Shown here in pieces: positions 7,492-58,500 of a stretch of DNA of 64,000 bases. The position numbers were made by a program, and so were the translations under genes. How positions within the stretch are numbered: the first letter of the stretch is position 1; every line of letters starts with the position of its first letter. The stretch is from Rhodospirillaceae bacterium. GTDB lineage: Bacteria; Pseudomonadota; Alphaproteobacteria; UBA6615. The stretch spans positions 3,683 to 67,682 of the forward strand of contig JABIVD010000016.1 of the NCBI GenBank assembly GCA_018667335.1. Reading direction: 5' to 3'. The notes beneath the pieces are model-generated. The model had not been told where the DNA came from and did no database searches. It was given only the letters and a program-made list of their open reading frames with translations.

Positions 7492-7893
7492 ATGGCAAAT
7501 GCAGAAACCAAGACCGAGGGTGCCTACAAGGCCGGTGATGGTACGTATGTGTTCGACGTTGACAAGTTACAGGGGCTGGAAGCCGGTCCGGGTTATGCCG
7601 CGACCTTCGGGCCCGTGGTCGAGGGTGAGCTGACTCAGGTCGGCATCATGACATTGCCCGCTGGACAGACGTCAGCGCCCCATACCCATCCCAACGAGCA
7701 ATGGATTTACATCTTGCGGGGCAAGCTGCATGCGACGGTGGACGGGCAGGAATCAGATGTTGGCCCAGGCCAGCTGATTTATATCCCGTCCGATACCGTG
7801 CACAGCGTGACGATCTCGCCGGACGAGGATTGCCACTTCTTCACCTGCAAGGACCTGCGCAGCGGGATCGCCGGCACACCCGTCGGCGGTTGA
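7492..7893 (+). CDS. Cupin-domain protein
   Basis: Strong RBS gggaggatcaatcATG. Cupin motifs HTHPNEQWIYILRG ... GQLIYIPSDTVHS. Paralogous to the cupin at 46908..47303. Confidence 0.8.
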   Translation: MANAETKTEGAYKAGDGTYVFDVDKLQGLEAGPGYAATFGPVVEGELTQVGIMTLPAGQTSAPHTHPNEQWIYILRGKLHATVDGQESDVGPGQLIYIPSDTVHSVTISPDEDCHFFTCKDLRSGIAGTPVGG

Positions 7894-7919
7894 TGCGGCG
7901 GTTGATGCGGCGGTTGACG
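7884..7919. repeat. 12-bp tandem repeat x3 (cggcggttgatg) overlapping the cupin stop codon
   Basis: Read directly: cggcggttgatg cggcggttgatg cggcggttgacg. Confidence 0.8.
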
Positions 7920-7934
7920 TTGTTTTTCGGCGGC

Positions 7935-8225
7935 CTAGAGGCCGTCGAACATCAGCACCGGGCCGTTGGAACCTGAATTCCGGGATGCAAGCCACGGCTG
8001 ATACTCGGCATCATTGTACCAGGCCTCGGCTGAAGCCCGGTCCGGGAACTCGATGATGACCGCGGCGGACGGTGCGTCGGCGTCGCCTTCCAGCTTCGTC
8101 ACTTCGGGCGTCTGGGCGATATAACGTCCGCCATGTTTGGCGACGAGTTCGTGAACGGCGGGTCCGTAAGCCGCCATCCAGGACGGGTCGGTGATGGTCA
8201 GCGAAGCTGTGAGATATGTGGTCAT
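7935..8225 (-). CDS. DUF1330-domain protein
   Basis: 96 aa. The sequence (MTTYLTASLTITDPSWMAAYGPAVHELVAKHGGRYIA...) matches the DUF1330 family pattern. Confidence 0.65.
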   Translation of the reverse strand: MTTYLTASLTITDPSWMAAYGPAVHELVAKHGGRYIAQTPEVTKLEGDADAPSAAVIIEFPDRASAEAWYNDAEYQPWLASRNSGSNGPVLMFDGL

Positions 8226-8488
8226 GGTGTTTCCCTGTTTGGCGTAATTGTAGGACGTTATCAGGCCCGCATTAGATGACCAATCATGAGGGCACCATCT
8301 TTGCTGGCGAAGACTTGTGCTTGCGCCGCCATATCACCGCATCCACGGTGTGGTGGTGGTAATTGTCGGTCTGAAACAGGATCAGGGGTGCGACGCCGAC
8401 CGCAAACAGTCCGACCGCGGTGCGCAGCGATAGGGCCAGAAAAAGAAAACCTCGAAAACGTTCAGATGTAGAGGCGCGCCGTGTTCAG

Positions 8489-11098
8489 TTATTCGCCCGC
8501 CTCGCGGAACCCGTGTATGCGACTTGGCGGAAAACGAACAGTGACGACCGTCCCGAGATTCGGAGTGCTTTCGAACAGCAGTTGCACCCCTAGCGCATCG
8601 CAAAACATTTGCGACAAGGGCAGTCCCAGGCCGACCCCTTCATGACTTCGGGTTAGCGCGTTTTCAATCTGGCCGAAGGGCTCGAACGCAGTCTTGAGAT
8701 GCTCCTGGTCAATTCCAACACCGGTATCGGCCACGGTAATCTCTACCTCGCCGGTTGGAAGGTAGATGGCGTTGATCGAAACCGAATCCCCCGTGTGCGA
8801 AAATTTGACAGCGTTGGAGAGCAAGTTGATGAAGACCTGCTTGGCGATACGCGAGTCGAGCCAAAGTGTCGGAAGGTTTTCCGCGACGTTGAGGTTCAGC
8901 TCCAACTCGACCGATTTGGCATGCGACTCGAGTAGTTGGCAAACCGATGTGAGCATTTCACGAATGTCCGTTTCCTGCTCGTGCAGGACCAGCGTACCCG
9001 CCTCGATCTGCGAGAGATCGAGAATATCGTTAATGATCCCAAGCAGATGATGTGCGCTTTCGTGTATCGCACGAACGTCACCGACATACTCCGGATTACC
9101 GACGGGGCCACGAATTTCCTCCAGCATCATTTCGGAGAACCCGATAACGGCATTGAGCGGTGTCCGCAGTTCGTGGCTCATATTGGCGAGGAACTCTGAC
9201 TTTGCGAGGTTGGCCAATTCCGCAAATTCCTTCGCTTGGGCGAGGGACTGTTCGTGCCGTTTGGCGTCGGTCACATCAAACAGGACCGTAATGAATCCAT
9301 CTTCGGAAGTTCTCTGGTCCACTATTCGAAGCCAGCGATTGTCGCGGACAGCGACGGTGCGCGCGAGTTTGCTGGCCGTGCTGGGTTTTAGTTCACGCCG
9401 GCGGGAGCACCATTCTTTCTGTTGTTCCGCGGATATGTCGAACAGTCCGGATTTGACCGCCGCTCCAAGAATCTGTTCGAACGGCGTCCCGGGTTCGCAA
9501 ACCTTGCGGTTCTCGGCATGCAGTCGGCGGAAGGCCGTGTTGCAGATGGTCAGCCGGTCGTTTGCGTCGAACATGGCGAACGCCTCGCCGAAGCTCTCCA
9601 TCGCATCCAGAAGTTGTCGCTGGATCGTATCCCGCTGGTTCTCGGCTTCGACATACTCCGACAAATCTTCGACGGTGATCACAAAACTGTCCTGCCCGGT
9701 CGAGACTTCGCGGGTCGTAACGTCGGCTGGAAATGTTGTGCCGTCCAACCGTCTCGCCACGCGCCGCATAGGTTCATCGGCTGCGACCAATTCTTGGGCG
9801 AAGCTCTCGCCAACCGACCGGTCATTGAGGAGGCCCGGGAAGTAATCGGTAACATCCTGGCCGATCATCGCTTTGCGCGATTGTCCGAACATACGCAGGG
9901 CGGCGGCGTTTGCGGAGCGGATTCTCCCGTCGGCGTCGACCGTCAGGATTGCTTCACCGATCGTGTTGAAGACGAGTTGCATGAACCGTGAAGAGGTTCG
10001 CTGTTCGCGTGCGAGGGTGAAGATGCGCTGCCGCTGGCTTTGAAGTTGCTCGGCGGTGCTGGCGAGGAAAACCAGGAACGCCGCGAGCATCCATGGGGCG
10101 GTATCAAGCAGGATGGGTGACAGCGAATATACCGCGAAGGACGCGGCAAATGATCCGGCTACAGCACCACCACACAGCAAAGCGGATTGTGTGATGTTTG
10201 GTCTGCGTCGTGTCAGGCGCCAGAGGCCGAAAACCAGAATGGCAGTGACGATCAGGGTAAACAGACCCGTCGGTCTGACGAGTGCACGGTCTTGGAGCAG
10301 GGACTGCGCTGCGAGCACATGCGTGAGAGTTGCCGGCAAAGCCCTGTAGCGCGACACGGGGACATGGGTGCCCAATTGGCTGGATGTCACGCCGATCACG
10401 ACATGACGACCTCGCACCTTCTCCGGTGCCACCTCGCCGTTCAGAACGTCGATATAGGACAGCATCGGAATCGTGGCCGGATCGAAGCTCAGGTCGATAT
10501 AGAAAAGCGCTGGTTGTGCGTTTGCGCCGGAGGCCAATGCCGTCGAGAACGTCGGCACGAACGACCGACCCGTATCTTCAAATAAGGGCATGCGGCGTAC
10601 TCGCCCGTCTGCGTCGGGTCGCAACACGATGGCGGCGACATTGCTTGAGGTGCGGAACATTTCCAGCGGTTGGCTGAGTAGTTTCGTCGGTGGATGGGAG
10701 GAAAAATTCTGCCGCTGTGTAAACGCGGCCAAAATTGTGTTCTCGCGATAGCGCATGAGAGTCTCGGCCAAGGCCGCGTCGTCGACGGGATCTCCGGCGG
10801 AACTGAGATCGATATCGATCGCGACAAGATCGGCGCCGAGTTGATGTAGTCGTTCGATGACGTCCGCGTGGCGCGCACGCGGCCAGGGCCATGCGCCCAT
10901 CGCGGCGAGACTCTTGGGGTCGATCGTGACCACCACGATATCCGTGTTCACCGCACGCGTCTGGCTGCTGAGGCGCAAATCGATCAGCGGGTTTTCGACA
11001 AATTCGAATCCCCGTCCGAGAAATATGGCGGCGACGATCAGAAAGATGATCGCAGGCACGCCAAATCGACGGAGGAACTGTGCGGCTTCCCCGGTCAA
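8489..11098 (-). CDS. CHASE2-domain sensor histidine kinase with cytoplasmic PAS domains, HisKA and HATPase_c
   Basis: 869 aa. N-terminal TM helix, periplasmic CHASE2-like region, TM cluster, PAS repeats, H-box [22 protein letters not shown], then N/G1/G2 ATPase motifs. No receiver domain. Confidence 0.85.
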   Translation of the reverse strand: MTGEAAQFLRRFGVPAIIFLIVAAIFLGRGFEFVENPLIDLRLSSQTRAVNTDIVVVTIDPKSLAAMGAWPWPRARHADVIERLHQLGADLVAIDIDLSSAGDPVDDAALAETLMRYRENTILAAFTQRQNFSSHPPTKLLSQPLEMFRTSSNVAAIVLRPDADGRVRRMPLFEDTGRSFVPTFSTALASGANAQPALFYIDLSFDPATIPMLSYIDVLNGEVAPEKVRGRHVVIGVTSSQLGTHVPVSRYRALPATLTHVLAAQSLLQDRALVRPTGLFTLIVTAILVFGLWRLTRRRPNITQSALLCGGAVAGSFAASFAVYSLSPILLDTAPWMLAAFLVFLASTAEQLQSQRQRIFTLAREQRTSSRFMQLVFNTIGEAILTVDADGRIRSANAAALRMFGQSRKAMIGQDVTDYFPGLLNDRSVGESFAQELVAADEPMRRVARRLDGTTFPADVTTREVSTGQDSFVITVEDLSEYVEAENQRDTIQRQLLDAMESFGEAFAMFDANDRLTICNTAFRRLHAENRKVCEPGTPFEQILGAAVKSGLFDISAEQQKEWCSRRRELKPSTASKLARTVAVRDNRWLRIVDQRTSEDGFITVLFDVTDAKRHEQSLAQAKEFAELANLAKSEFLANMSHELRTPLNAVIGFSEMMLEEIRGPVGNPEYVGDVRAIHESAHHLLGIINDILDLSQIEAGTLVLHEQETDIREMLTSVCQLLESHAKSVELELNLNVAENLPTLWLDSRIAKQVFINLLSNAVKFSHTGDSVSINAIYLPTGEVEITVADTGVGIDQEHLKTAFEPFGQIENALTRSHEGVGLGLPLSQMFCDALGVQLLFESTPNLGTVVTVRFPPSRIHGFREAGE

Positions 11099-37622: not shown

Positions 37623-38518
37623 ACGCGAGACTGCCCAGCTTTGCCGTCGGGTTGGGCTGCGGACTTGTGGTGCCGTTCATCTGGGGCGGCTGGATTGTGG
37701 CATCGCGGTTTGGCGTGCTCAACGCGCTAACCCCATTCGACGTGACGGCGATCCGGGTCGGAGTTGCCGCCATCATCGTGTTGCCGTTGCTCCTGACCCG
37801 GGGTCTGGCGGGGCTGCCCTTATGGAAGGGCGCGGTCCTTTCCTTTGGCGTCGGCGTTCCCTTCGCATTGACCTCTTTCGGGGGTATGGCGTTGGCGCCG
37901 GTGGTTCACGCGGGTGTCCTGACGAACGGGGTGATGCCGATCTTCGCCGCGATCATCGGTTACTACTGGCTGCGCGAACTGCCGGCACGGTCACAGATCG
38001 GCGGCATGCTCCTGATTGTGGTCGGGGGTGCGATGGTGGGTGGCGACAGCTTCAGTCTCGATGCGGCGCCGGGGCAGTGGCTTGGTGATCTGTTGCTGAT
38101 CGGCGCGGCGGTATGTTTCGCCCTTTATATGACGGCGCTGCGCCGCTGGAACGTCACGATCCTGCAGGCCATCATCGCCGTCCCGACGATAAGTTCGGCG
38201 ATCTATATTCCGGTCTGGCTGTTGTTCTTGCCGTCGGGGCTCTTGCAGTTCGACAATTTTCCGCCGTGGCAGGAGGTGGCGCTGCAAACCTTTTATCAGG
38301 GGATCATTGCCAGTTTCATCGTGGTGATTCTGATCACGCGGGCGACAAAGTCGCTCTCGGCAACGACGGTGGCGGTTCTGCTTGCGGGTTCACCCGCACT
38401 GGCGGTGTTGTTCGGAATTGCGCTTCTTGAAGAGGTGCCGAGCGGGCTTGCCTGGGCCGGTCTGGCCGTGACGACAATGGGCATGGTGTTGGCAGTCGGA
38501 CGCCGCGCAAGAACATAG
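37619..38518 (+). CDS. DMT-superfamily transporter (EamA family), tandem paralogue
   Basis: ATGA overlap with the upstream paralogue. 10-TM EamA architecture. Confidence 0.8.
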   Translation: MNARLPSFAVGLGCGLVVPFIWGGWIVASRFGVLNALTPFDVTAIRVGVAAIIVLPLLLTRGLAGLPLWKGAVLSFGVGVPFALTSFGGMALAPVVHAGVLTNGVMPIFAAIIGYYWLRELPARSQIGGMLLIVVGGAMVGGDSFSLDAAPGQWLGDLLLIGAAVCFALYMTALRRWNVTILQAIIAVPTISSAIYIPVWLLFLPSGLLQFDNFPPWQEVALQTFYQGIIASFIVVILITRATKSLSATTVAVLLAGSPALAVLFGIALLEEVPSGLAWAGLAVTTMGMVLAVGRRART

Positions 38519-38613
38519 TTCGCGCGAGAATCTTCGGGATCGTCAGCATCTCGTGTACATATCTGAATTGCAGAAATCAGCCTGTTTTGGCAGATTGGCG
38601 CCTGGGGGGTTCA

Positions 38614-38982
38614 ATGAGCAGATCTTTGTTCGACAAGTACGGCGGTTTTGCGAGCGTCAGCAAGGTCGTGTCTGCGTTCTACGACAAGGCTGTCGACTCC
38701 GACATCATCGGGCCGTACTTCGACGATATCGACATGCGCGCGCAGGTCGATCATCAGACAAAGTTCATTTCATCCCTAATGGGTGGTCCGGCGAGCTATT
38801 CCGACGAGGCGCTGCAAAAAGTGCATTCGGGGCTGCATATTGACCGAACCTCATTCGAGGAAATGGTAAAACTGCTGCACGAAACGCTTGAGGAATTTGC
38901 CTTTGAGCGCGCGGACATCGAACAGATCATGCATGAGATCAATTCGCGCGCCGACATCGTCATCACCCGGCACGATTCGTGA
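38614..38982 (+). CDS. Truncated haemoglobin (group I, 2/2 globin)
   Basis: LFDKYGG start, conserved heme-pocket F/Y residues, proximal His in SHxxLxI (KVHSGLHID). RBS ggggggt. Confidence 0.75.
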   Translation: MSRSLFDKYGGFASVSKVVSAFYDKAVDSDIIGPYFDDIDMRAQVDHQTKFISSLMGGPASYSDEALQKVHSGLHIDRTSFEEMVKLLHETLEEFAFERADIEQIMHEINSRADIVITRHDS

Positions 38983-40061
38983 CGGACGCCGCCCAGGACA
39001 TCTCAATGGACATGGAGCAATTTCGCTCCATGCTGCTCGATTCCGTTGGGGTGGGACTGGCGGTCGTGGATCATGACGGCTTCGGCGTGTTGCTCCACAA
39101 CGCGATGTTCGGCGAATGGTTCCCGGATATCGTTGCCGGCGATTCTACGTTCGCAGACGTGTTGCCGAAGTTCGATGCGGAACTCGTGACGCAGAAAATA
39201 GCAGAGGGCGAGACCTGGAAATGCGAGGTCGAGGTCAAACCGAAGCGGCGTGCGATTTCACTCGCCGTCGAGTTTGTGCCGGCCGCTGGCGCCGGCCACG
39301 GCGAAATTATGGTTCAGTGCCAGAATATTTCGAAGATCAAGGAACTCGAATACATGATCGAGTCCTATTCGAAGATGATCGAGCGCCAGAACCGTGATCT
39401 GAAAAAGGAAAAAGAACGGGTCGAGAAACTGCTGCTCAACATCATGCCGCAGCAGGTTTATGAGGAGTGGAAGGAGTTCGGGGTCACCACGCCGCAACGC
39501 TTCGATAGCGCCTCGGTCCTCATGCTCGATTTTGTCGGCTTTACCCAAATGGCGGTTTCGCAAGAACCGACCAAGCTTATCTCCGAGCTGAACGATATCT
39601 TCACGTCCTTCGATCGGATCGTTGAACAGTTCGGTTGCGAGAGGCTCAAGACGATTGGTGACGCCTATGTCGCCGTGTCCGGGCTACCGGAACAGAATCC
39701 TGATCACGCGCGCAACATCGCCCGTGTGGCGCTGCGTTTCGTGCGATATCTCCACCGCCGAAACGAGAACAGCGAGTTTGAGTGGAAATGCCGCGTCGGC
39801 ATCAACACCGGGGCCGTGATCGGCTCGGTCGTGGGTGTCCAGAAATATGTCTACGACATCTTCGGGCCGGGCGTGAATCTCGCCGCCCGGATCGAGGCAG
39901 TGTGCGAGCCGATGGAGATTCTCGTCGGCCAGGGCACCTACGACGAAATCCAGAACGAGTTCAGGCTAAGCGATTTTGGCGAGCACGAGATCAGGGGGTT
40001 CGGGCCGCAGCAGCTCTACCGCCTCGACGGTGATTTCACCCCGGCAAACGACAGCATCTAG
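38979..40061 (+). CDS. Class III adenylate/guanylate cyclase with an N-terminal PAS-like sensor domain
   Basis: CHD-domain motifs LMLDFVGFT and KTIGDAY plus the transition-state residues. ATGA overlap with the globin gene. Confidence 0.85.
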   Translation: MTDAAQDISMDMEQFRSMLLDSVGVGLAVVDHDGFGVLLHNAMFGEWFPDIVAGDSTFADVLPKFDAELVTQKIAEGETWKCEVEVKPKRRAISLAVEFVPAAGAGHGEIMVQCQNISKIKELEYMIESYSKMIERQNRDLKKEKERVEKLLLNIMPQQVYEEWKEFGVTTPQRFDSASVLMLDFVGFTQMAVSQEPTKLISELNDIFTSFDRIVEQFGCERLKTIGDAYVAVSGLPEQNPDHARNIARVALRFVRYLHRRNENSEFEWKCRVGINTGAVIGSVVGVQKYVYDIFGPGVNLAARIEAVCEPMEILVGQGTYDEIQNEFRLSDFGEHEIRGFGPQQLYRLDGDFTPANDSI

Positions 40062-40068
40062 CGCCGGC

Positions 40069-41343
40069 TCAGGCCGGGAGCCGCAGCACCATGCGGTTGA
40101 TTGCGTTCATGACCTTGTAAAGCTCATCGAACTGGCGCTTGAACGCGTCGTAGTCGAGGTCCGAGCGCTTCTCTCGGATGGCGGCGTGAATCTCGGCCAG
40201 CGACCTGTTGCCATCGCAGAGTGCCACGATCGGCCGCGACAGCGTCGGCACCGCCATGGTGGTTTTCAGTCCATCGGTCGTGACGGTGATTTTGCCGCCG
40301 GTCGGCAGGGCCTTGGCTATGTCTTCGGCATTCAGGTTCGGCAGGTGGGGAGTGACCTGTGGGTCGGCGGTGCTGGGTAGGGCCACGGGGTTATCATCTC
40401 GCACCGCGTAGAAGATGTGCTTCTTGAGATTCCCGGCGAACGATTCTGCGAAGCTCGCCCGCGTGATCTGATCCTGTTCGTGCAGGTGTTTCAGGATACG
40501 CGGGTCGCTGACCAGCCAATCCGGATCATAACGGTAGGGCTCGATGAAGCCCGTCAGGCGCAGGCTGGCCTGCGTAACGAAGTCGGCGATTTCGGGCACC
40601 CGGTAGGCCCGGTCGCGCGAATGCAGGAACAGGTCATAGATCCCCGGATCGCCGCCGCCGACGTGGTCGCGGATCAGGTCGTTGCGCATGATCCATGATG
40701 TGTTGGGCAAATCCGCCGCCAGCCGTTTGGCCATGGCGACCCGTTCATCGTCTGGTATCGCGCCGCCCGGGGCGATCGTCCGCAGCATGTCCTGCATGTG
40801 ATAGACGCCGGTGCGGCCATATTCGCCATAGACCATGACCCCGATACCCCCATCGGGCGCGAGCTGTCCGGCCAGCGCCGTAAGCCCGGCGTCGGGGTCT
40901 TCGAGATGGTGCAGCACACCGCAGCAATCGATGTAGTCCCATGGGCCGGGTGCCACTTTGGCGACGTCGAGCAGGGAGCCGGTCACGAAACGGATATTGT
41001 CCAGCCCACGCATCTTGGCGCGCGCCTGTGCCACCGCTTGGCTGGGGCCGCTCAGGTCGAGATGGACGACCTCGCCGGGCACGTCTGCATCGCGCATGTG
41101 CTGGGCCAGCATGATCGCGGCGTCGCCGGTGCCGCCGCCGGCGACCAGCGCCTTCATTGGCTTCGACAGGTCCCGCGCGCCGCCGAACACATAGTGATTC
41201 AGCTCGAACAGGTTGCTGGGCGAGCCGGCAATCAGGCGGGTTTTCTCGTCGTCCGGATTGCGTTCGGGATAGGGGTAGGATTCATACTGGGATTGTACGC
41301 GTCGATCGCGCGCGTTGGTGTTGTTTGAGACGGGGTCGGTCAT
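40069..41343 (-). CDS. Class I SAM-dependent methyltransferase
   Basis: Motif I ALVAGGGTGDAA, ~420 aa with a long C-terminal extension. Confidence 0.7.
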   Translation of the reverse strand: MTDPVSNNTNARDRRVQSQYESYPYPERNPDDEKTRLIAGSPSNLFELNHYVFGGARDLSKPMKALVAGGGTGDAAIMLAQHMRDADVPGEVVHLDLSGPSQAVAQARAKMRGLDNIRFVTGSLLDVAKVAPGPWDYIDCCGVLHHLEDPDAGLTALAGQLAPDGGIGVMVYGEYGRTGVYHMQDMLRTIAPGGAIPDDERVAMAKRLAADLPNTSWIMRNDLIRDHVGGGDPGIYDLFLHSRDRAYRVPEIADFVTQASLRLTGFIEPYRYDPDWLVSDPRILKHLHEQDQITRASFAESFAGNLKKHIFYAVRDDNPVALPSTADPQVTPHLPNLNAEDIAKALPTGGKITVTTDGLKTTMAVPTLSRPIVALCDGNRSLAEIHAAIREKRSDLDYDAFKRQFDELYKVMNAINRMVLRLPA

Positions 41344-50355: not shown

Positions 50356-50431
50356 GGGGCCGTAGCTCAGTTGGGAGAGCGCTACGTTCGCAACGTAGAG
50401 GTCGTCGGTTCGATCCCGTCCGGCTCCACCA
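50356..50431 (+). tRNA. tRNA-Ala (anticodon CGC)
   Basis: 76-nt cloverleaf with the G3:U70 Ala identity pair, anticodon loop TTCGCAA, T-loop TTCGATC and encoded CCA. There is one U:U mismatch in the T-stem. Confidence 0.85.
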
Positions 50432-50693
50432 AATTTTCCCGAACACCCAAAGTAGCCGAGCGCTGATCCGCATTGGCTTTCTCAGTATCCGCGCGGACCG
50501 GTGTGCACGGTCTGGCGATGCCTGCACGTTTTCGGGCTCGGAGACTCGCCCGCTTGCGCAACAATTGGGAGGTGATGATCGCCCAACCGCGCAACAGCCT
50601 GAGGGGCGGGTGAAACACTACTTGCGTGTTTATCAATGGGGAGGGTCATGTGACGCCTCACAAATCTGGCGCTAGCAGATGTCGAGGCCGTAC

Positions 50694-51059
50694 ATGACCA
50701 CACTGAAGGACTTCGTTAGAGACACGCTTTCGCAGATTGCAGAGGCGGTCGATGAGTTTGAGAGCAGTCAAACCGGCACCGACCAAAATGCCGCCACTGC
50801 TCGACCGGAAATAGCCACGGATCCGAGCGATGCTTCGAAATCTACTGCCGCTGCCGGCTTCCTCTACCTGGGATACCGTGAGGGGTATGCGACGATCGTG
50901 GACTTTGATGTTGCAGTCACAACCGAAGAGAACGAGGCGAAGAAGGCCGGAGGTGGAATCAAGGTGGTGCCGTTCCGCGTGGAGGGTGGTCTTGAATCCG
51001 GTGTTGCCAATACCTCGGTAAGCCGAGTGAGTTTCCGTCTCCCACTTAAGCTCACTTAA
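50694..51059 (+). CDS. trypco2-family protein (trypsin-co-occurring domain 2, a conflict-system-associated domain)
   Basis: 121 aa. The pattern LKDFVRDTLSQIAEAV ... IVDFDVAVTTEENEAKKAGGGIKVVPF ... SVSRVSFRLPL matches the trypco2 family pattern as I recall it from NCBI 'trypco2 family protein' annotations. RBS gagg 6 nt before the ATG. Local GC ~52-55 % against ~65 % in the flanks. Confidence 0.55.
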   Translation: MTTLKDFVRDTLSQIAEAVDEFESSQTGTDQNAATARPEIATDPSDASKSTAAAGFLYLGYREGYATIVDFDVAVTTEENEAKKAGGGIKVVPFRVEGGLESGVANTSVSRVSFRLPLKLT

Positions 51060-51140
51060 GGCTTCACAATCGGCCCCCCTCGACGGGACAACGGGACCGA
51101 ATTGCAGACCGTAGGACGGACCAATCGAAAGAGTGTAGCT

Positions 51141-51800
51141 ATGAAGAAGGAAACACTGCTGGCACCGGGAACCGCCATCTTGCTGCTCGCCTTGATAGGC
51201 GGAGCAATCCTGTTGGTGTTTGTTGTTGGTGGAGTTCTCGAGATCTTTGATGATCCTGAATCGCGAACTTCGGACGTCATTTACCGATATCAAACCTACC
51301 TGGCTGGTGCTGTAGCGGTGCCAGCTGCCGTGGTGACCGTGCTCGGAGTATATGCGGCTGCGAACATGCCTGTTGCAGCAGAGGAACAGCGGCGACGGCA
51401 GCAACGAATTCGAGACCAAAGAATCGGCGCGGCGGTTCTTGCTGGGGAAATAACAACCGCTATCGTTGAACTGATAAAAGTGAAAGCGGAGATTGAAGAC
51501 GCGGATGACCCAGCGGAATTTGCTTTTCCGCCGTTCCCTATTCCCGAACACCTTCGAAGTTTTGAGGTCATAGCGACACAGATCCCCGAAGTGGCCCATT
51601 TGACCGCAGTGTTTGTTTCGGACATGACGTTCAGATCTGCGCTCGAAGGGATATTTATCGGCAGAGATGATCCCGCCAAATCCATCAAACAAATTGACGA
51701 TGTAATTGCCCGAGCTCATGAGCTCGGACAGCTGCTTACCGATATTGTTGAGCCCGGCGCGGTTTTTCGGGGAGCGGCGATACTGACAGACATGGAATGA
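51141..51800 (+). CDS. Hypothetical membrane protein with two N-terminal TM helices and a ~150-aa cytoplasmic domain
   Basis: 219 aa from MKKETLL. TM1 ~ residues 8-30, TM2 ~ 48-70, then a charged linker (EEQRRRQQRIRDQR) and a domain with no recognisable motif. Same strand and 80 bp downstream of the trypco2 gene, in the same lower-GC islet. Confidence 0.45.
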   Translation: MKKETLLAPGTAILLLALIGGAILLVFVVGGVLEIFDDPESRTSDVIYRYQTYLAGAVAVPAAVVTVLGVYAAANMPVAAEEQRRRQQRIRDQRIGAAVLAGEITTAIVELIKVKAEIEDADDPAEFAFPPFPIPEHLRSFEVIATQIPEVAHLTAVFVSDMTFRSALEGIFIGRDDPAKSIKQIDDVIARAHELGQLLTDIVEPGAVFRGAAILTDME

Positions 51801-52134
51801 AGCGAGAGCCTCGCCGGCTGGCAGGTGTCCGCCCGCTTGCGCTTTGCTAGGGCGTGCGGAGACCTGGCGGTTGGGGCTGGTCGGCCTCGGCGCGCGTCAA
51901 CCTGCCAAGGCGGTTTTCACCGCTGTGCGGCGGACCCTCCGTCTTTCGGCTGACCCTCGCCTCCACCGAAGAGCGACGAACGCGCAGCCGAGATCGTGCC
52001 TGATTTTTGCGCGGGCATGATATAGGAAGCCAATAATTGACGGGGCAGTCGCGCAATTGACCGTGGCGACATGTGTCTGCAAAACGAATGGTTCGTAGTA
52101 CAGCGCACCCATCCGGCATTTTGATCGAGATAAC

Positions 52135-54324
52135 ATGACAGAATTCGAAGGCGTTGTTCCGCCGCTTCAGCAGGCTTTGACCCAACGGGGCTACACCGAG
52201 TTGACCCCGGTGCAAACCGCGATCCTGGCCCTCGACAACAAGAACGCCGACGCCCTGGTTTCCGCGCAGACGGGGTCCGGCAAGACCGTGGCTTTTGGGC
52301 TGGCGCTGGCGCCGACCCTGCTGGATGGTGCGGACCGTTTTGTCCGTGCAGACGCGCCCCTGGCTCTGGCGGTCGCGCCGACGCGCGAACTGGCCCTGCA
52401 GGTGCGCCGCGAACTCGAATGGCTTTATGCGCCGACGGGAGCGGCCTTCGCCTCCTGCGTCGGCGGCATGGATGCGCGCGCCGAACGCATGGCGCTGCAG
52501 CGCGGTGCACACATCGTGGTCGGCACGCCGGGACGGTTGCGCGATCACATCGAGCGCGGTTCGTTCAACACGACGGGGCTCAGGGCCGTGGTGCTCGACG
52601 AAGCCGACGAGATGCTCGATCTGGGCTTTCGTGACGACCTCGAGTTCATTCTCGATGCGGCGCCCAAAGACCGGCGCACATTGTTGTTCTCCGCCACCGT
52701 GCCGCGCACCATCGCCAATCTCGCCAAGCGCTACCAGCGCGATGCGGTGCGGGTCTCGACATCGGCGGAGCAAAGCCAACATGTCGATATTGACTACCGT
52801 GCCCTCACGGTCGCACCCAACGACACCGAAAACGCCATCGTCAATGTGTTGCGCTATTTCGATGCGAAGAATGCACTCGTCTTTTGCGGCACGCGTGCGA
52901 CCGTCAACCGGATGACCAGCCGCTTTGCCAATCGCGGGTTCTCGGCGGTGGCGTTGTCGGGTGAGCTCAGCCAGAACGAGCGCACCCATGCCTTGCAGGC
53001 GCTCCGCGATGGGCGCGCGCGGGTGTGTATCGCCACCGATGTGGCGGCACGCGGACTGGATCTGCCGAATTTGGAACTGGTGATCCACGCTGACCTTCCG
53101 AAGAACCGCGAATCCCTGCTCCACCGAAGTGGGCGAACCGGGCGTGCGGGCCGCAAGGGCGTGTGCGCGTTGATCGTGCCTCACAATATGCGCCGTCGGA
53201 CCGAGCGGTTGTTGCACAGTGCCAACGTAGAGGCGACATGGGCCAATCCGCCATCCGCCCATGAAATTATGGCGCGTGACCGGGAGCGTATTTTCAGTGA
53301 CCCGGCCCTCAGTGAGCCGCTCAGCGACGAGGAACGCGCCTTCGCACAAAAACTCTTGTCCCAACACGATGCCGAGCATGTCGCCGCCGCGTTCCTGCGC
53401 CGTCATCTCGAAGACCAGACGGCGCCGGAAGAGCTGCTCGATGCGGCCCCGACGGAATCGCACAGAGACCAGCCGCGCAAGGATCGCCGGGACAACTTCA
53501 AGGACAGCGTTTGGTTCACGCTCTCGGTCGGGCGCAACGAGCAGGCCGAGGCGCGTTGGCTGATGCCGATGTTGTGCCGCGCCGGCCATCTGACCAAACA
53601 GGATATTGGGGCGATCCGCATCCAGCACAGCGAGACCCATGTCGAGATTGCGGCGGGTTCCGTGGATCGATTCCTCGAGGGGATCGGCCCCAGCGGCAAG
53701 GTCGAAAAAAACATTGTCGTGACCCGGCGGGAAAACGACCCCACGGCCGGTGATTCCCGTGAGTCGAACGACAAACCCTATTCGGAAAAGAAGCCGTATA
53801 GCGCCAGACCACGCAGCGAGCACGCCGCCGGTGCGTCGCGGGATTCCGGTGACAAACCGTATTCGAAGAAGAAGCCCTACACCGCCAGACCGCGCGATGA
53901 GCAGGCCGCCGGCGCGTCGCGTGATTCCAGCGACAAACCCTATTCGAAGAAGAAGCCCTACAGCGCCAAACCGCGAAGCGAGCAGGGCTCCGGTGCGCCG
54001 CGTGATTTCGGCGACAAGCCCTATTCGAAGAAGAAGCCCTATAGTCCCAAGCCGCGCGACGAGCAGGCCAACCAGGGTGGGAAGCGCCATTTTGATCCGG
54101 CATCCGGCACGCCGGCGGGCGACGAGAAAATGCCCTGGGAACAGGAAGAGAAGAAGCCCTGGGTGAAGAAGGGCAAAAAGTCGCCGAAGAAAGCCGCAGC
54201 CAAGAAACCCAAAAAGGGGAAACTCGGCCTCAAGGCACCAAAAATGAGCGCGAAAGCCCGGGCGGCGATTCAGTCCGGCCACGCGCCGATGAAGCGGAAG
54301 AAACCGAAACGAGACCGCGTCTAG
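52135..54324 (+). CDS. DEAD-box ATP-dependent RNA helicase with DbpA-like RNA-binding domain and a basic repeat-rich C-terminal tail
   Basis: Q-motif, AQTGSGKT (motif I), PTRELA, DEAD, SAT, HRSGRTGRAG (motif VI), then the repeat tail. Confidence 0.9.
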   Translation: MTEFEGVVPPLQQALTQRGYTELTPVQTAILALDNKNADALVSAQTGSGKTVAFGLALAPTLLDGADRFVRADAPLALAVAPTRELALQVRRELEWLYAPTGAAFASCVGGMDARAERMALQRGAHIVVGTPGRLRDHIERGSFNTTGLRAVVLDEADEMLDLGFRDDLEFILDAAPKDRRTLLFSATVPRTIANLAKRYQRDAVRVSTSAEQSQHVDIDYRALTVAPNDTENAIVNVLRYFDAKNALVFCGTRATVNRMTSRFANRGFSAVALSGELSQNERTHALQALRDGRARVCIATDVAARGLDLPNLELVIHADLPKNRESLLHRSGRTGRAGRKGVCALIVPHNMRRRTERLLHSANVEATWANPPSAHEIMARDRERIFSDPALSEPLSDEERAFAQKLLSQHDAEHVAAAFLRRHLEDQTAPEELLDAAPTESHRDQPRKDRRDNFKDSVWFTLSVGRNEQAEARWLMPMLCRAGHLTKQDIGAIRIQHSETHVEIAAGSVDRFLEGIGPSGKVEKNIVVTRRENDPTAGDSRESNDKPYSEKKPYSARPRSEHAAGASRDSGDKPYSKKKPYTARPRDEQAAGASRDSSDKPYSKKKPYSAKPRSEQGSGAPRDFGDKPYSKKKPYSPKPRDEQANQGGKRHFDPASGTPAGDEKMPWEQEEKKPWVKKGKKSPKKAAAKKPKKGKLGLKAPKMSAKARAAIQSGHAPMKRKKPKRDRV
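53770..54085. repeat. 81-bp (27-aa) tandem repeat x4 encoding DKPYSKKKPY-containing units in the helicase C-terminal tail
   Basis: gacaaaccNtattcgaagaagaagccctaYa... recurs at 53770, 53851, 53932 and 54013. Confidence 0.85.
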
Positions 54325-54476
54325 GCATTCGTCGAGCTGACGCCTGGGCGGGTGATTCCGCCCATCTTTGCCGCGAATCCCCAGGCGGTCACAATGCCCC
54401 TACCCAACGTCTGGTCCCCGCGCGCGGGCCGGTTTCGGCATCGGTGAGGCCGAAGCAACGTTCTCTCTCGGCTTGA

Positions 54477-54842
54477 TCAGAACGCGGCGTTCCATTGCTC
54501 GGTATCCACGAACCATCGTTCTTCGTGGATCTTTCCCTCTGTGAACTTGAACAAAACCGCAAGCTGGCTGCCTCCGGGGACCTTGTCGCTCTTCCATTCG
54601 ACGACAGAGACAATTTCTCCGGTTTCCCCGATTTCGCGGATGGCGGAAATGTCGAACCCCGGCGGCAATGCCGCGCCGATGTTTTCCAGCGCCCCCCGAA
54701 ACGCAGCCTTGCCTTTCAATACATCGTCCTGCCCGGGCATCACGAAGATCATGTCTTCGGTGTAATCAGCGATCAGCGTATCCCAGTCCCCCTGTGCGAC
54801 CGCTTCCCAGCCTCGTTTCACAACATCTGCATCGGTTCCCAT
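54477..54842 (-). CDS. NTF2-like/SnoaL-like domain protein
   Basis: 121 aa with the N-terminal GDWDTLIADYTEDMIF pattern of SnoaL/ketosteroid-isomerase-like folds. Confidence 0.65.
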   Translation of the reverse strand: MGTDADVVKRGWEAVAQGDWDTLIADYTEDMIFVMPGQDDVLKGKAAFRGALENIGAALPPGFDISAIREIGETGEIVSVVEWKSDKVPGGSQLAVLFKFTEGKIHEERWFVDTEQWNAAF

Positions 54843-55187
54843 TTTTCGCTCCTATTTTTTGTAGCCAGAAATTTGCAAATACTAGCGAACGGGAGGTCAA
54901 GCTGAACGGTCCACGAGAAGTATCAGGTGGATTGTCGGTCTGCTTGCATGTCCTGCCGCCAGAAAACCCAGGTCCCCAAGAGTTGAACACCGTTTCTATC
55001 CCGGTCCAAGTGGTCACGTAACCGTGTCGGTGTCCTGGCTTCACAGGTTTGTTGCCCGCCGTGCTTAACAAACAATGATACAATCGTAACAGGACGTGAT
55101 GCATCGGCGTTGGGGACATGAATGTCGATGCGCGCAAATCGCAACAGGTTTGTCGGTCGTGAGGCCGGCAAGCGATGAGGGTGAAAT

Positions 55188-55874
55188 ATGGGACTGTTCG
55201 GTAAAATATTTGGTGGTGGTGCTTCGCCGGAGAACAAGGTGGAAACACCCACTGCTCCGGATTCCGACGCTTCTGATGATCAGGCCTGGGAGGGTGTTTC
55301 CGGGCAAAATCAAATGGCGTGCCCGATTCCGTTCGTGGAAGAGGACCAGGCAACCGGTGAAATCGCCGAGATCTACGATTCCTTGAAGAAGGCCATGCAG
55401 GTCCCCGAGGTCCCGAACATGAACAAGGTGCTCGCGCAATCGCCGCAGGCACTGAAGGCCACCGTGGCCATGCTTGGTGAGCTGTTTATGGGGTCGAGCT
55501 TGCCGCAGCCGATTGTCTCGATGCTGCTTTACTCGATTTCGCTGGCGCGCCGATGCCAGTACTGCAGTTCGATGCATCGTCTGACGTGCCGGATGGTGGG
55601 GGTCGACGAGACGATGCTTTCTGCGGTGGGAAACAATCTCGGTTCGGTTACGCCGGAGCGGGTGCAAGCGATCGTTGCGTTCGGTATCAAGGCGGCGATG
55701 TCGTCGGCCGACCTTACGGAGGCTGACTACGACAAGCTGCGGGATATGGGGATCAGCGATTCGGAAATCGTCGAGATCGTCGCGCTTTCGGGGTTGGGCG
55801 TGTATCTCGACATCGTTGCGGAGTCTTTGAAGATCGAGGTCGACGTGATGGTCAAGCAGGGTTTGGCCGCCTAA
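55188..55874 (+). CDS. Carboxymuconolactone-decarboxylase/AhpD-like family protein
   Basis: AhpD-like core including the CQYC motif. Confidence 0.65.
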   Translation: MGLFGKIFGGGASPENKVETPTAPDSDASDDQAWEGVSGQNQMACPIPFVEEDQATGEIAEIYDSLKKAMQVPEVPNMNKVLAQSPQALKATVAMLGELFMGSSLPQPIVSMLLYSISLARRCQYCSSMHRLTCRMVGVDETMLSAVGNNLGSVTPERVQAIVAFGIKAAMSSADLTEADYDKLRDMGISDSEIVEIVALSGLGVYLDIVAESLKIEVDVMVKQGLAA

Positions 55875-55887
55875 CGGCTCAGCGAAT

Positions 55888-58500
55888 ATGGTCGATTCCG
55901 AAACTCAGGCACCGGACTCTACGAAAGAAGGCTGGCAGGCTCAGGCCACGCGGTATGCCTTGCTGTTCGACATTGTGCTTCTGATTGCACGGTCGGAGAA
56001 TTTTGAAGACCTGCTTTCCCAGGCCGTGGGTCGCGTCAAATGGGTTTTCGATTTCGAACGCTGCACTTTGGCGTTACGCAATCCCGATGAAGAAACCTAC
56101 GACTTCAGGACATTGCTCGACACGCGACGCGGGAGCGAATTGTTCTCAGTAGGCGATGTGCCCTTGTCACAAGGGCTCTCGGGGGAGGTCATGTCGTCCG
56201 GGCAGATGAAGTTGTTCACTGACAAATCTGCTGCGGCGGACGGAATTGCGTCAGCGCTCGACCCCGCCCTCGCGAATGGCGAGATGGGCTCCGTCCTGGC
56301 CTTGCCGCTCGAGGCCTATGGCCAGGTGCTGGGCTGCATGACATTCGGGGCGACACGCGAAAACTGCTTCAGCGATGAGGACGTCAAGATTGCTGTTCAG
56401 TTCGCGACCCACCTGGGACTCGCGATCGATCGCTGGCGACAAACCGATGCACTGCAGGGCGAGGTTTCCGAACGGCGCCGTGCGGAGTCGGAACTGGCCG
56501 CGTTGATCGAGGAACTCCAGACCGCCAACGTCGACGTCGAGGCGGCACGCACGCAGCTATACGACGCAATCGAGGCGATCTCCGAGGGTTTCGCATTGTT
56601 CGACACCGAGGACCGCTTCGTTTTGTCGAACAGCGTCTACAAGGAGTATTTCCGGGGCGTCACGGACAAGATCGAGCCGGGCGCGCCGTGGGCCGAATTT
56701 TTCCGCACCGGGCTGAAGCGTGGCGTTATTGAAAGAACCGCCGACACCATCGAGGCCGAAATCGAAGAGACGAAGGTCATCCGTCACGGCGGACGTTCCC
56801 TTGAACGTCAATTGGGTGAGGGCCGCTGGCTGCGTGTCGGTCACCGCCCCACCGAGACCGGCGGTCTGGTGACGGTCTACACCGACATCACGGAGCTAAA
56901 GGAGCGCGAGCGCCAGCTCGGTGAGCTCGTGGATTCACTTGCCGGTGCGCGTGACGAGGCGATGGAAGCGACGCGTACGAAATCGCAGTTCCTCGCCAAC
57001 ATGAGCCACGAACTTCGTACGCCGTTGAATGCAGTCATCGGAATTGCCGAGATGCTTCAGGAAGAGGCAGTCGATGACGGTCTCAAGGATTTTGTCGAGC
57101 CGTTGGAGCGCATCAACAAGGCCGGCATACATCTCCTGAACCTGATCAACGAGATACTCGATCTTTCAAAGATCGAGGCGGGGCGGGTCGAGTTCGAGAC
57201 CGGAAATATCGAAGTGGACGCGCTCGTTGGTGAAGTGGCGACCATGGTGCAGTCACTCGCCGACCAAAACTCGAACACGCTCATGGTCGATTGTGCGGAC
57301 GACGCCGGCGCGATCCATGGCGATCCGACGCGGGTGCGACAGGTCGTCTTTAACCTGTTGTCCAACGCGTGCAAGTTTACGGAAAATGGAAAGGTAAACC
57401 TGAGGGTCCGGCGCCAGGCGGGTGATGCCGGCGAGATGATCAACTTCGAAGTCTCCGACACGGGAATCGGTATTTCCGAGCAGCAGGTGGAGCGACTTTT
57501 CCAGGAATTCAGTCAGGCCGACGCTTCGACCACGCGCAAGTATGGGGGCACGGGACTGGGGCTCGCGATCAGCCAGCGCCTCTGCCGCTTGATGGGCGGC
57601 GACGTCACGGTCGAGAGCGAACTCGGCAAGGGCACAACGTTCACGGCCTGTATTCCCGTTCATGTTGCGGGTACGTCCAGCGCGGATCTTGATGACGTTC
57701 ATCGGGATCACAGCGCGACGACGGACCAGGCGCCGAGGGGAAACCTGGTGCTCGTGATCGATGACGATCCCACGGTCAGGGATTTGATGCGTCGGCATCT
57801 GGAACACGACGGAGCCGAGGTCATCACGGCCGACGGTGGCGTCGAGGGACTCAGGCTTGCGCGCGAACGGCTCCCGTCTGTGATCACGCTCGACGTATTG
57901 ATGCCGGACATGGACGGTTGGCGGGTGTTGCGCGAACTCAAGGCCGACAAGGATTTGGCGCTTATTCCGGTCGTCATGGTCACGATGCTGGACGACAAAA
58001 ACAAGGGATACGCCCTGGGTGTGTCCGACTACCTGAACAAGCCTGTCTCGCGCGAACAACTACGCAGCATGGTCGAACGGTTCCTGGTCAACTCGGCCGG
58101 CGCACATGTGCTTGTGGTCGAAGACGACGAGACGGCACGCACCATGATGCGGCGCATACTGGTCAGTGAAGGGTGCCTGGTTTCCGAGGCGGTGAATGGC
58201 AGGCGTGCCCTCGAGCGGGTTTCAGATGAACGCCCGGATCTGATTCTGCTCGACCTGATGATGCCAGAAATGAATGGTTTCGAATTCCTCCAGGAGTTGC
58301 GAGCCAATCCTGAAACGATCGACATCCCGGTCATCGTCGTGACGGCGGCCGACCTGACCGAGGCGGACAGGTTGCGGCTCAACGGCGGTGTTGAGCAGGT
58401 GCTGCAGAAGAGCGAGTTCGATCGCGAGAAACTATTGGACGAAGTGCGCAGGCAGGTTGCGCGCGTGACGGATCGGGTTCCACCCGAGGGGGACGGGTAA
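55888..58500 (+). CDS. Hybrid sensor histidine kinase: GAF + PAS + HisKA + HATPase_c + two receiver domains
   Basis: H-box [28 protein letters not shown]1/G2 boxes, then two REC domains ([13 protein letters not shown] ... DVLMPDMDG and [13 protein letters not shown] ... DLMMPEMNG). Confidence 0.85.

Follow-up and report, generated by a model that had tools for sequence, protein, structure and literature searches.

How would a Pepco-like pore be controlled where no protease accompanies it? Two small genes on contig JABIVD010000016.1 of a Rhodospirillaceae bacterium make this question testable. They occupy an islet of low GC (guanine plus cytosine) content directly downstream of a tRNA-Ala(CGC) gene, within the 64-kb stretch of DNA analysed here (the window), to which all coordinates refer; loci compared with it carry L-numbers and homologous proteins P-numbers. 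The first gene, open reading frame 1 (ORF1), encodes a putative remote relative of the Trypco2/Pepco proteins, and the second, ORF2, an inner-membrane protein. We propose that the islet is a decayed rolling-circle element of the Rep_1 type with a membrane-targeting ORF1/ORF2 conflict cassette. Taken as a whole, this statement stands in even balance between right and wrong. Its steps on origin and identity are held well above that level, and its functional step, a membrane-targeting conflict role that we infer from the comparative analysis, would be a tentative assignment with somewhat less than an even chance of being correct.

The segment between 50440 and 51979 is foreign DNA seated directly after tRNA-Ala(CGC), the sole tRNA that ARAGORN found in the window. 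Relatives part from the window sequence 8 nt past the 3' end of this tRNA. The closest different relative, L050 (95 % amino acid identity in YggT and 96 % in the helicase), matches the window colinearly, at ~91 % identity, as far as 50439 and then from 51980 onwards; between these flanks it has 1,281 bp of unrelated sequence, against 1,540 bp in the window. An earlier, sequence-only reading of the stretch had correctly described an intact tRNA-Ala gene ending at 50431 and a foreign segment behind it, but had drawn that segment from 50432 to 52134, beyond the bounds set by colinearity with L050. Both ORF1 and ORF2 are absent at this tRNA from all 80 loci in a scan of YggT relatives, most of which keep the adjacency of YggT and tRNA-Ala. 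The islet recurs at 99.9-100 % identity in every contig that has an identical YggT and spans the locus, which shows only fixation in part of one population. Furthermore, L020, L021, L047, L057 and L059, which represent other strains and species, have a different, AT-rich sequence directly after the same tRNA-Ala, starting TTTCTAAAAATTTGAATTTTATTTCAACGG. In L020 and L059 this is followed by an ORF, MKRNGRYTVRVRRRG..., whose N-terminus looks integrase-like (phage type), a resemblance that a family search did not confirm. Since other insertions follow the same tRNA and the segment is replaced in L050, the 3' flank is an integration hot spot and 50440-51979 is foreign, in keeping with the horizontal acquisition at a tRNA 3' end that had been proposed.

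Composition also sets the islet apart. GC lies between 0.50 and 0.58 across 50500-51800, where a fall to roughly 52-55 % had already been noted from the sequence, and mostly between 0.60 and 0.70 past the flanking intergenic dips (300-nt windows in both cases); the earlier figure of about 65 % for the flanks was slightly high, the whole-window mean being 0.618. Over its full length the islet has a GC of 0.569, within the lowest 4 % of equal-size windows, and GC at third codon positions (GC3) is 0.58 in ORF1 and 0.50 in ORF2 against 0.73-0.89 in YggT, DUF167, FolD, NnrU and the helicase. The other island at the same tRNA-Ala is visible in L020:1-577 and L021:1-134, and the T-arm of the L020 tRNA is swapped for a variant, as integration would leave it. 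The L050 insert equivalent to the islet (L050:4427-5707) encodes a 200-aa ORF with a signal peptide and no Pfam match, and 13 nt of the tRNA 3' end, CACCAAATTTTCC, are repeated ~100 nt ahead of renewed colinearity.

The origin of the islet is indicated by its non-coding ends, which are much better conserved than its genes: identity to L041 is 75-90 % over 50540-50660 and 80-90 % over 51860-51980, and 35-60 % within the coding regions. A block at the upstream end (83-90 % identical to L041; consensus GAAACAyTryTTGCGwGTnTATCAAGGGGGAGGGTCAT) stands 5' of the first cargo gene, be it ORF1-like or ORF2-like, in the window, L008, L014, L037, L039, L041, L043 and L184, with a more degenerate copy in L001. 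Read on the minus strand, the block is ATG-ACC-CTC-CCC-CTT-GAT-A..., a gene start. In L008 the gene is intact and encodes a Rep protein of 400 aa (Pfam Rep_1, 34.9 bits against a cutoff of 33.2), divergent from the ORF1 homologue P0012. L041 keeps a remnant of ~111 codons, which matches the L008 Rep at 48 % identity over 113 aligned residues (E 8e-23), and N-terminal remnants lie at the same position in the window (55 codons) and in L039, L037, L043, L001 and L014 (21-75 codons before a stop). The sequence-only reading had counted exactly two genes; two intact co-oriented genes are indeed present, but this stub is a decayed third. Its 55 codons lie upstream of the Rep_1 domain and no Rep_1 gene proper remains; only the first ~13 rep codons stay conserved among the decayed loci. 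Seven related loci read CTTGATA on the rep strand at the heptamer position within the block, and CTTGATA is the nick site of the double-strand origin (dso) of Rep_1 replicons (PMC10378824).

The best preserved relative, L008:1394-8091, is an intact element of 6.65 kb, bounded by perfect direct repeats of 49 bp from a tRNA-Pro(CGG) 3' end, with HTH_17, HTH_19, rep, an ORF1-like cargo gene and three small genes. Several L008 genes have no Pfam match, including a 341-aa gene where an integrase is expected. L037 and L039 start at the same tRNA-Pro 3' end, and L041 at a tRNA-Ala 3' end; the identification of the latter as the 3' end of a tmRNA was discarded, the sequence being identical to the tRNA-Ala 3' end of L020. 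At the downstream end of the islet, a 3' element (51809-51975) is 80-90 % identical to the DNA after the ORF2-like genes of L041 and L039, is partly present in L037, L043 and L001, and matches no Rfam family. It may serve the parent element as a single-strand origin or as some other backbone site. This ~170-nt element (L041:1482-1650 and L039:958-1100) is kept where the ORF2-like proteins are only 33-44 % identical.

On these comparisons, the islet is a decayed derivative of a tRNA-integrating Rep_1 rolling-circle element. It has lost the recombination and regulatory genes and most of rep, and it retains four parts: the 55 rep codons, the nick-heptamer block, a cargo slot on the opposite strand and the 3' element. 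No integrase gene is left in the islet or in the window, as had been reported. The block at 50609-50649 probably also holds the cargo promoter, and its retention suggests that it carries this promoter, an origin, or both. Two other readings of the block were set aside: as a structured RNA it has no Rfam family and merely 4 weakly covarying predicted pairs, and as a sigma-70 promoter it shows no consensus and proved to be the minus-strand start of rep. An exact 13-bp direct repeat, CGCCCGCTTGCGC (50547-50559 and 51830-51842), considered as an insertion scar left by target-site duplication, is treated as chance; a search of the metagenome collection did not recover the empty-site junction that it predicts, L041 does not conserve it, and such a length arises in 3.5 % of resampled sequences.

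Trypco2 is defined by its association with proteases (PMC7159879). SsPepco, a member of this family, is a pre-assembled 9-10-mer beta-barrel that turns into a lethal pore once cleavage behind Ile97 by its partner protease has released a charged, proline-rich tail of 20 residues (bioRxiv 10.1101/2025.11.14.688446). The corresponding Pfam family, PF19631, is the sole Pfam match of ORF1, over profile positions 36-76 only, in the C-terminal half of the model. It is matched by 12 of 16 close ORF1 homologues (best E 2.6e-5), and P0026, P0086 and P0115, all members of the ORF1 clade, exceed its 24.2-bit cutoff with 26.5, 30.8 and 25.8 bits; SsPepco scores 65.6 bits. Residues 4-27 of ORF1 are predicted to form an amphipathic N-terminal helix, with a predicted local distance difference test score (pLDDT) of 81-83 and a hydrophobic moment of 0.55 against 0.33 in SsPepco; a low-complexity insert of ~30 residues follows, and then three strands of alternating hydrophobic and polar residues, as read from the sequence. 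The protein ends in ...SFRLPLKLT, ~3 residues past the end of the Pfam domain (SsPepco residue ~85), with no linker and no tail. Tails within the clade measure 0 to ~45 residues, the subgroup of ORF1 having the shortest, which end 3-4 residues after the last beta-strand. No model in PADLOC-DB 2.0 matched ORF1 (a DpdE match with E 0.016 is at chance level), nor did anything in PHROGs or NCBIfam, and the plasmid collection contained no relative. The first AlphaFold2 (AF2) model of the protein was too poor for a fold search. ORF1 is best regarded as a remote member of the Trypco2/Pepco superfamily without protease or tail, a link that rests on its relatives. Trypco2 identity, as claimed by the sequence-only reading, is thus only partly supported, through the homologues but not through the scores of ORF1 and SsPepco given below, and the motifs listed as typical of trypco2 characterise the stand-alone ORF1 clade rather than canonical Trypco2.

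A profile built for this clade retrieved at least 2,262 proteins among 8,000 candidates scored; its members have ~100-190 aa, mostly 110-150 (120 listed). The clade keeps conflict-type genomic company. One member occupies the first cassette position behind an integron integrase (TIGR02249, 455 bits), another is immediately followed by a type IV restriction-like gene and PD-Lambda-1, and others lie beside Abi_C, beside an RRXRR-HNH gene or within a type I restriction-modification operon. In the temperate Bacteroides phage BS-TP2, the ORF1-like gp45 (PQ571275.1; L182:4995-5384) forms a divergent unit with a helix-turn-helix (HTH) regulator beside HicAB; its annotation as 'PhnM' looks like an error. 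The clade also occurs in 56 IMG/VR contigs, one of them inovirus-like with Rep_trans and Zot, and the conserved upstream block was not found in the viral contigs. No recurrent neighbour family accompanies ORF1-like genes across 15 genomes. In ~20 distinct clade loci examined, no protease or sensor nucleoside triphosphatase (NTPase) is adjacent, and no peptidase, STAND or AAA+ NTPase gene lies within ~5 kb of ORF1 and ORF2, as had been observed from the sequence.

In at least three divergent lineages of Rhodospirillales, an ORF1-like gene is flanked by MazG and an MBL-TatD-MetRS cluster. At this MazG/MBL spot the ratio of nonsynonymous to synonymous substitution rates (dN/dS) is 0.01-0.03 at a dS of ~0.9, among relatives that are 57 % identical; the gene there is therefore functional and selected, not debris. 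The MBL-fold gene beside these homologues was considered as a partner effector in the style of Pepco and dismissed, since it belongs to the housekeeping cluster whether or not the cassette is present.

ORF2 is a two-pass inner-membrane protein of a rare new family without a recognised relative, in line with the two transmembrane (TM) helices and unrecognised C-terminal domain described earlier. A word-indexed search found only the protein itself; its standing as an orphan was given up when an exhaustive phmmer search of 1.84 billion representatives yielded relatives in 26 clusters (27-44 % identity, 183-250 aa). An AF2 model from the 26-sequence alignment (pLDDT 87.3; predicted template modelling score, pTM, 0.71) places TM1 at residues 9-37 and TM2 at ~51-75, the latter continuing as a long helix to residue 120. 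The loop between them is acidic (EIFDDPESRTS, within the conserved family motif EIFDDPxSxTS), and the C-terminal part is modelled as a four-helix bundle, predicted to be cytoplasmic. Charge bias indicates a putative cytoplasmic location of both termini. No Pfam, NCBIfam, PHROG or PADLOC family matches ORF2, and fold searches returned generic four-helix bundles only, with no specific match. The good ribosome-binding sites claimed for both genes hold for ORF1, with GAGG 8 nt upstream of the start, but the Shine-Dalgarno sequence of ORF2 is weak.

Table 1. Features of the islet and its integration site, in window coordinates.
Feature	Position	Strand	Description and basis
tRNA-Ala(CGC)	50356-50431	+	Integration hot spot abutted by the islet; ARAGORN, Rfam tRNA 64.4 bits
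Foreign islet, 1,540 bp	50440-51979	none	Segment replaced or absent in relatives; L050 colinearity, GC and GC3
rep remnant, 55 codons + stop, MTLPIDKHASSVSP...	50482-50649	-	Start and N-terminus as in the L008 Rep_1 ORF, MTLPLDRLASNVS...
Conserved block	50609-50649	none	Common to related cassettes; first ~13 rep codons and heptamer ATTGATA (50631-50637, minus strand)
ORF1, 121 aa (MTTLKDF...)	50694-51059	+	Putative distant stand-alone Trypco2/Pepco-like protein; PF19631, E 0.012, 16.3 bits
ORF2, 219 aa (MKKETLL...)	51141-51800	+	Inner-membrane protein; AF2 model, hydropathy, charge bias
Conserved 3' non-coding element	51809-51975	none	Inverted repeats GTCAACC..AAGGCGG / CCGTCTT..GGCTGAC; ends at the islet end

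Whether ORF1 and ORF2 form a module, as the sequence-only reading held, has a mixed answer. ORF1-like genes lie next to ORF2-like ones in three independent settings, which involve 3 of the 8 ORF2-family members examined. In the window ORF1 precedes ORF2 on the same strand with an 81-nt gap; in L041/L042 P0032 precedes P0124 in the same order, with a 12-nt gap and likewise at a tRNA-Ala; and in L001-L005/L022 P0128 lies upstream of P0005, in reverse order and ~340 nt apart. Because the ORF2 family is so rare, these three adjacencies are not due to chance. Each gene also occurs alone, however, even at one chromosomal spot, and as both families sit in one cargo slot behind one rep/promoter block, shared carriage can explain their association. 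ORF2 recurs beside ORF1-like genes without being a fixed companion, and a functional partnership between the two is possible without being required by the data.

The proposed course of events joins these parts. A small tRNA-integrating rolling-circle element would have brought the cassette, which the host would have kept after the element decayed. ORF1 may assemble as a small oligomeric beta-barrel whose N-terminal amphipathic helix engages the inner membrane, as in SsPepco. Because ORF1 has neither a protease nor an inhibitory tail, control of its activity would fall to a membrane partner or to expression driven by the conserved promoter block. Where present, ORF2 would be the likeliest candidate for that partner, serving as gate or as immunity factor, and together the two proteins might constitute a membrane-targeting conflict cassette that acts by abortive infection or by exclusion of phages or rival elements. 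A broader conjecture, which we consider doubtful, is that ORF1-type proteins are self-sufficient, protease-independent, Pepco-like barrel effectors and ORF2-type proteins their dedicated inner-membrane gates or immunity factors. The two would then make up an undescribed two-component module of membrane suicide or exclusion, spread as swappable cargo of tRNA-integrating rolling-circle elements and kept by hosts once the element has decayed.

Several results weigh against the proposal. ORF1 itself stays below the PF19631 cutoff (16.3 against 24.2 bits), the ORF1-clade profile gives SsPepco just 0.9 bits, and an hhalign comparison with SsPepco reaches 2.9 % probability, though the residues align in register. 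For the beta part of ORF1 the AF2 model is unreliable (pLDDT ~43). On the side of the element, the window contains no attachment (att) repeat of the tRNA (3' end, at most 2 mismatches of 12 nt), and its heptamer reads ATTGATA, not CTTGATA. An ORF1-like neighbour is missing beside five of the eight ORF2-family members, of which three have adequate flanking sequence, no ORF2-like gene accompanies the ORF1-like one at ~20 distinct loci examined, and three states exist at the MazG/MBL spot: both genes in L001, an ORF1-like gene only in L007 and an ORF2-like gene only in L043. A shared cargo slot can account for the co-occurrence without any functional link. Moreover, arms-race genes do not typically show very strong purifying selection or stay for long at one site. 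The MazG/MBL states are seen at L001:4800-6425, L007:3937-4153 and L043:257-1155, where the ORF2-like block (~1.0 kb) and the ORF1-like block (~0.64 kb) come and go separately.

The points on the pair lead to the reading in which ORF1 and ORF2 are independent cargo of one element family, ORF1 having a solo accessory function and ORF2 being an unrelated membrane protein. This is possible, if rather unlikely. The same rep-stub/promoter block precedes an ORF1-like gene alone in L008 and L014 and an ORF2-like gene alone in L037, L039, L043 and L184, each gene is a separate insertion/deletion block at the MazG/MBL spot, the order of the two varies, and no neighbour family recurs in the 15 genomes. 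What independence leaves to be explained is that three of the eight members of so rare a family nevertheless touch an ORF1-like gene, with close spacing (12 and 81 nt) and the same orientation in two of the settings. The cassette might instead have served the element rather than the host, by post-segregational killing (addiction) or by exclusion of competitors, and now be an orphan of its decay. The position of the cargo slot beside the rep gene and origin of an integrative rolling-circle element would fit such a role, as would homologues in an inovirus-like contig and in accessory regions of temperate phages; a toxin-like protein next to a membrane protein is also a layout compatible with toxin and immunity. 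We consider this improbable, however, as strong purifying selection has kept ORF1-like genes well beyond the decay of the element, such elements are absent where homologues sit in integron cassettes or chromosomal defence islands, and the loss of either gene without the other is hard to square with an addictive pair.

A further reading gives the cassette a domesticated physiological role outside conflict, for example that of an envelope-stress factor or small membrane channel: dN/dS is very low, the gene is retained beside the MBL/TatD/MetRS housekeeping cluster in divergent Rhodospirillales lineages, and no defence genes lie near those loci or in the window. A patchy distribution with absence at this locus in close relatives, the foreign composition and repeated carriage by integrons, prophages and defence islands speak against it, and we give it little credence, about as little as a role in the service of the element. 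Finally, ORF1 could belong to a canonical Trypco2 system whose protease or NTPase partner is encoded elsewhere and acts in trans. The visible DNA spans 64 kb only, and protease association is what defines Trypco2 (PMC7159879); ORF1 nevertheless stops ~3 residues past the Pfam domain, where SsPepco has 12 more residues to Ile97 and then its 20-aa tail, and none of the ~20 clade loci has a protease or NTPase alongside. A partner in trans is accordingly very unlikely. The decayed Rep_1 islet with a membrane-targeting cassette thus remains the reading that we prefer.

One flank of the islet carries YggT, DUF167, FolD, DUF3253, NnrU, a cupin and ArgG, and the other a DEAD/DbpA helicase and SnoaL. 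The helicase, the only NTPase nearby, is the same neighbour in L050, which has no such islet; it is resident genome, and its earlier description as core genome stands. Its C-terminal tail (53700-54150 within the gene at 52135-54324) contains several copies of a tandem, ~30-residue Lys/Pro-rich motif, DKPYSKKKPYSAKPRxEQ...GASRD. Public assemblies of the same population call both islet genes and annotate them as 'hypothetical protein [Rhodospirillaceae bacterium]'. A 353-aa antisense ORF (50658-51719, minus strand) runs across ORF1 and ORF2 and is taken as spurious, because both sense genes have independent, separately occurring homologue families. GC as low as that of the islet (1,540-nt windows below 0.57) is also found at ~7800-10000, 37950-40100 and 54350-56400, three stretches that are possible additional foreign segments.

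Pepco/Trypco2 proteins have so far been seen as latent pores, switched on by a dedicated, sensor-coupled protease that cuts off a C-terminal tail. The literature searched describes them only as protease-linked (PMC7159879; 10.1101/2025.11.14.688446; 10.1101/2023.09.22.558884), and makes no mention of a stand-alone, tail-less clade, of an ORF2-type companion or of carriage by tRNA-integrating Rep_1 elements. The present locus leads to at least 2,262 stand-alone relatives that have no protease, and many of which have no tail, under very strong purifying selection where it is measurable. If these proteins are membrane-active, their control must differ, and could lie in transcription, in a membrane partner such as ORF2, or in a protease of the host or of a phage. 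Furthermore, the comparison documents a little-known type of mobile element in marine Alphaproteobacteria, which integrates at tRNA genes, encodes Rep_1 and is outlived by its cargo.

Among known systems, pore-forming bacteriocins, which are paired with integral-membrane immunity proteins, offer an analogy only. Like them, the window has a putative membrane-active protein beside a small polytopic inner-membrane protein; the pair differs in that it has no relation in sequence or fold, is not obligate, and contains no export, receptor-binding or translocation domain. tRNA-linked islets and cis-mobilisable remnants share with the islet a position at a tRNA 3' end, foreign composition, variable content among close relatives and the lack of a recombinase of its own, whereas the islet is very small (1.5 kb) and its ends are set by conserved sequences internal to the element, not by att repeats. 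With pC194-type Rep_1 replicons L008 shares the Rep_1 gene and CTTGATA at the 5' end of rep, and with integrative rolling-circle elements it shares integration at a tRNA 3' end and a 49-bp att repeat; pSAM2-like elements combine tRNA integration with rolling-circle replication. The window differs from both types in having 55 rep codons, ATTGATA, and no integrase, excisionase or att repeat, and the hosts here are marine Alphaproteobacteria, not Firmicutes or Actinobacteria. For ORF1 the comparison is with Trypco2/Pepco itself (PF19631; SsPepco-SsAvs4 of Streptomyces subrutilus). ORF1 departs from it by a sub-cutoff score, by the ~30-residue low-complexity insert after the helix, by the lack of an adjacent trypsin- or caspase-like protease, STAND or MoxR-vWA NTPase, and by the lack of a C-terminal linker, conserved cleavage Ile and charged or Pro-rich tail; the members of its clade stand alone and are carried by integrons, prophages and rolling-circle elements. 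It resembles Trypco2/Pepco in size (~120 aa), in the predicted order of an N-terminal amphipathic helix and three amphipathic beta-strands, and, at the level of the clade, in its conflict-type genomic company.

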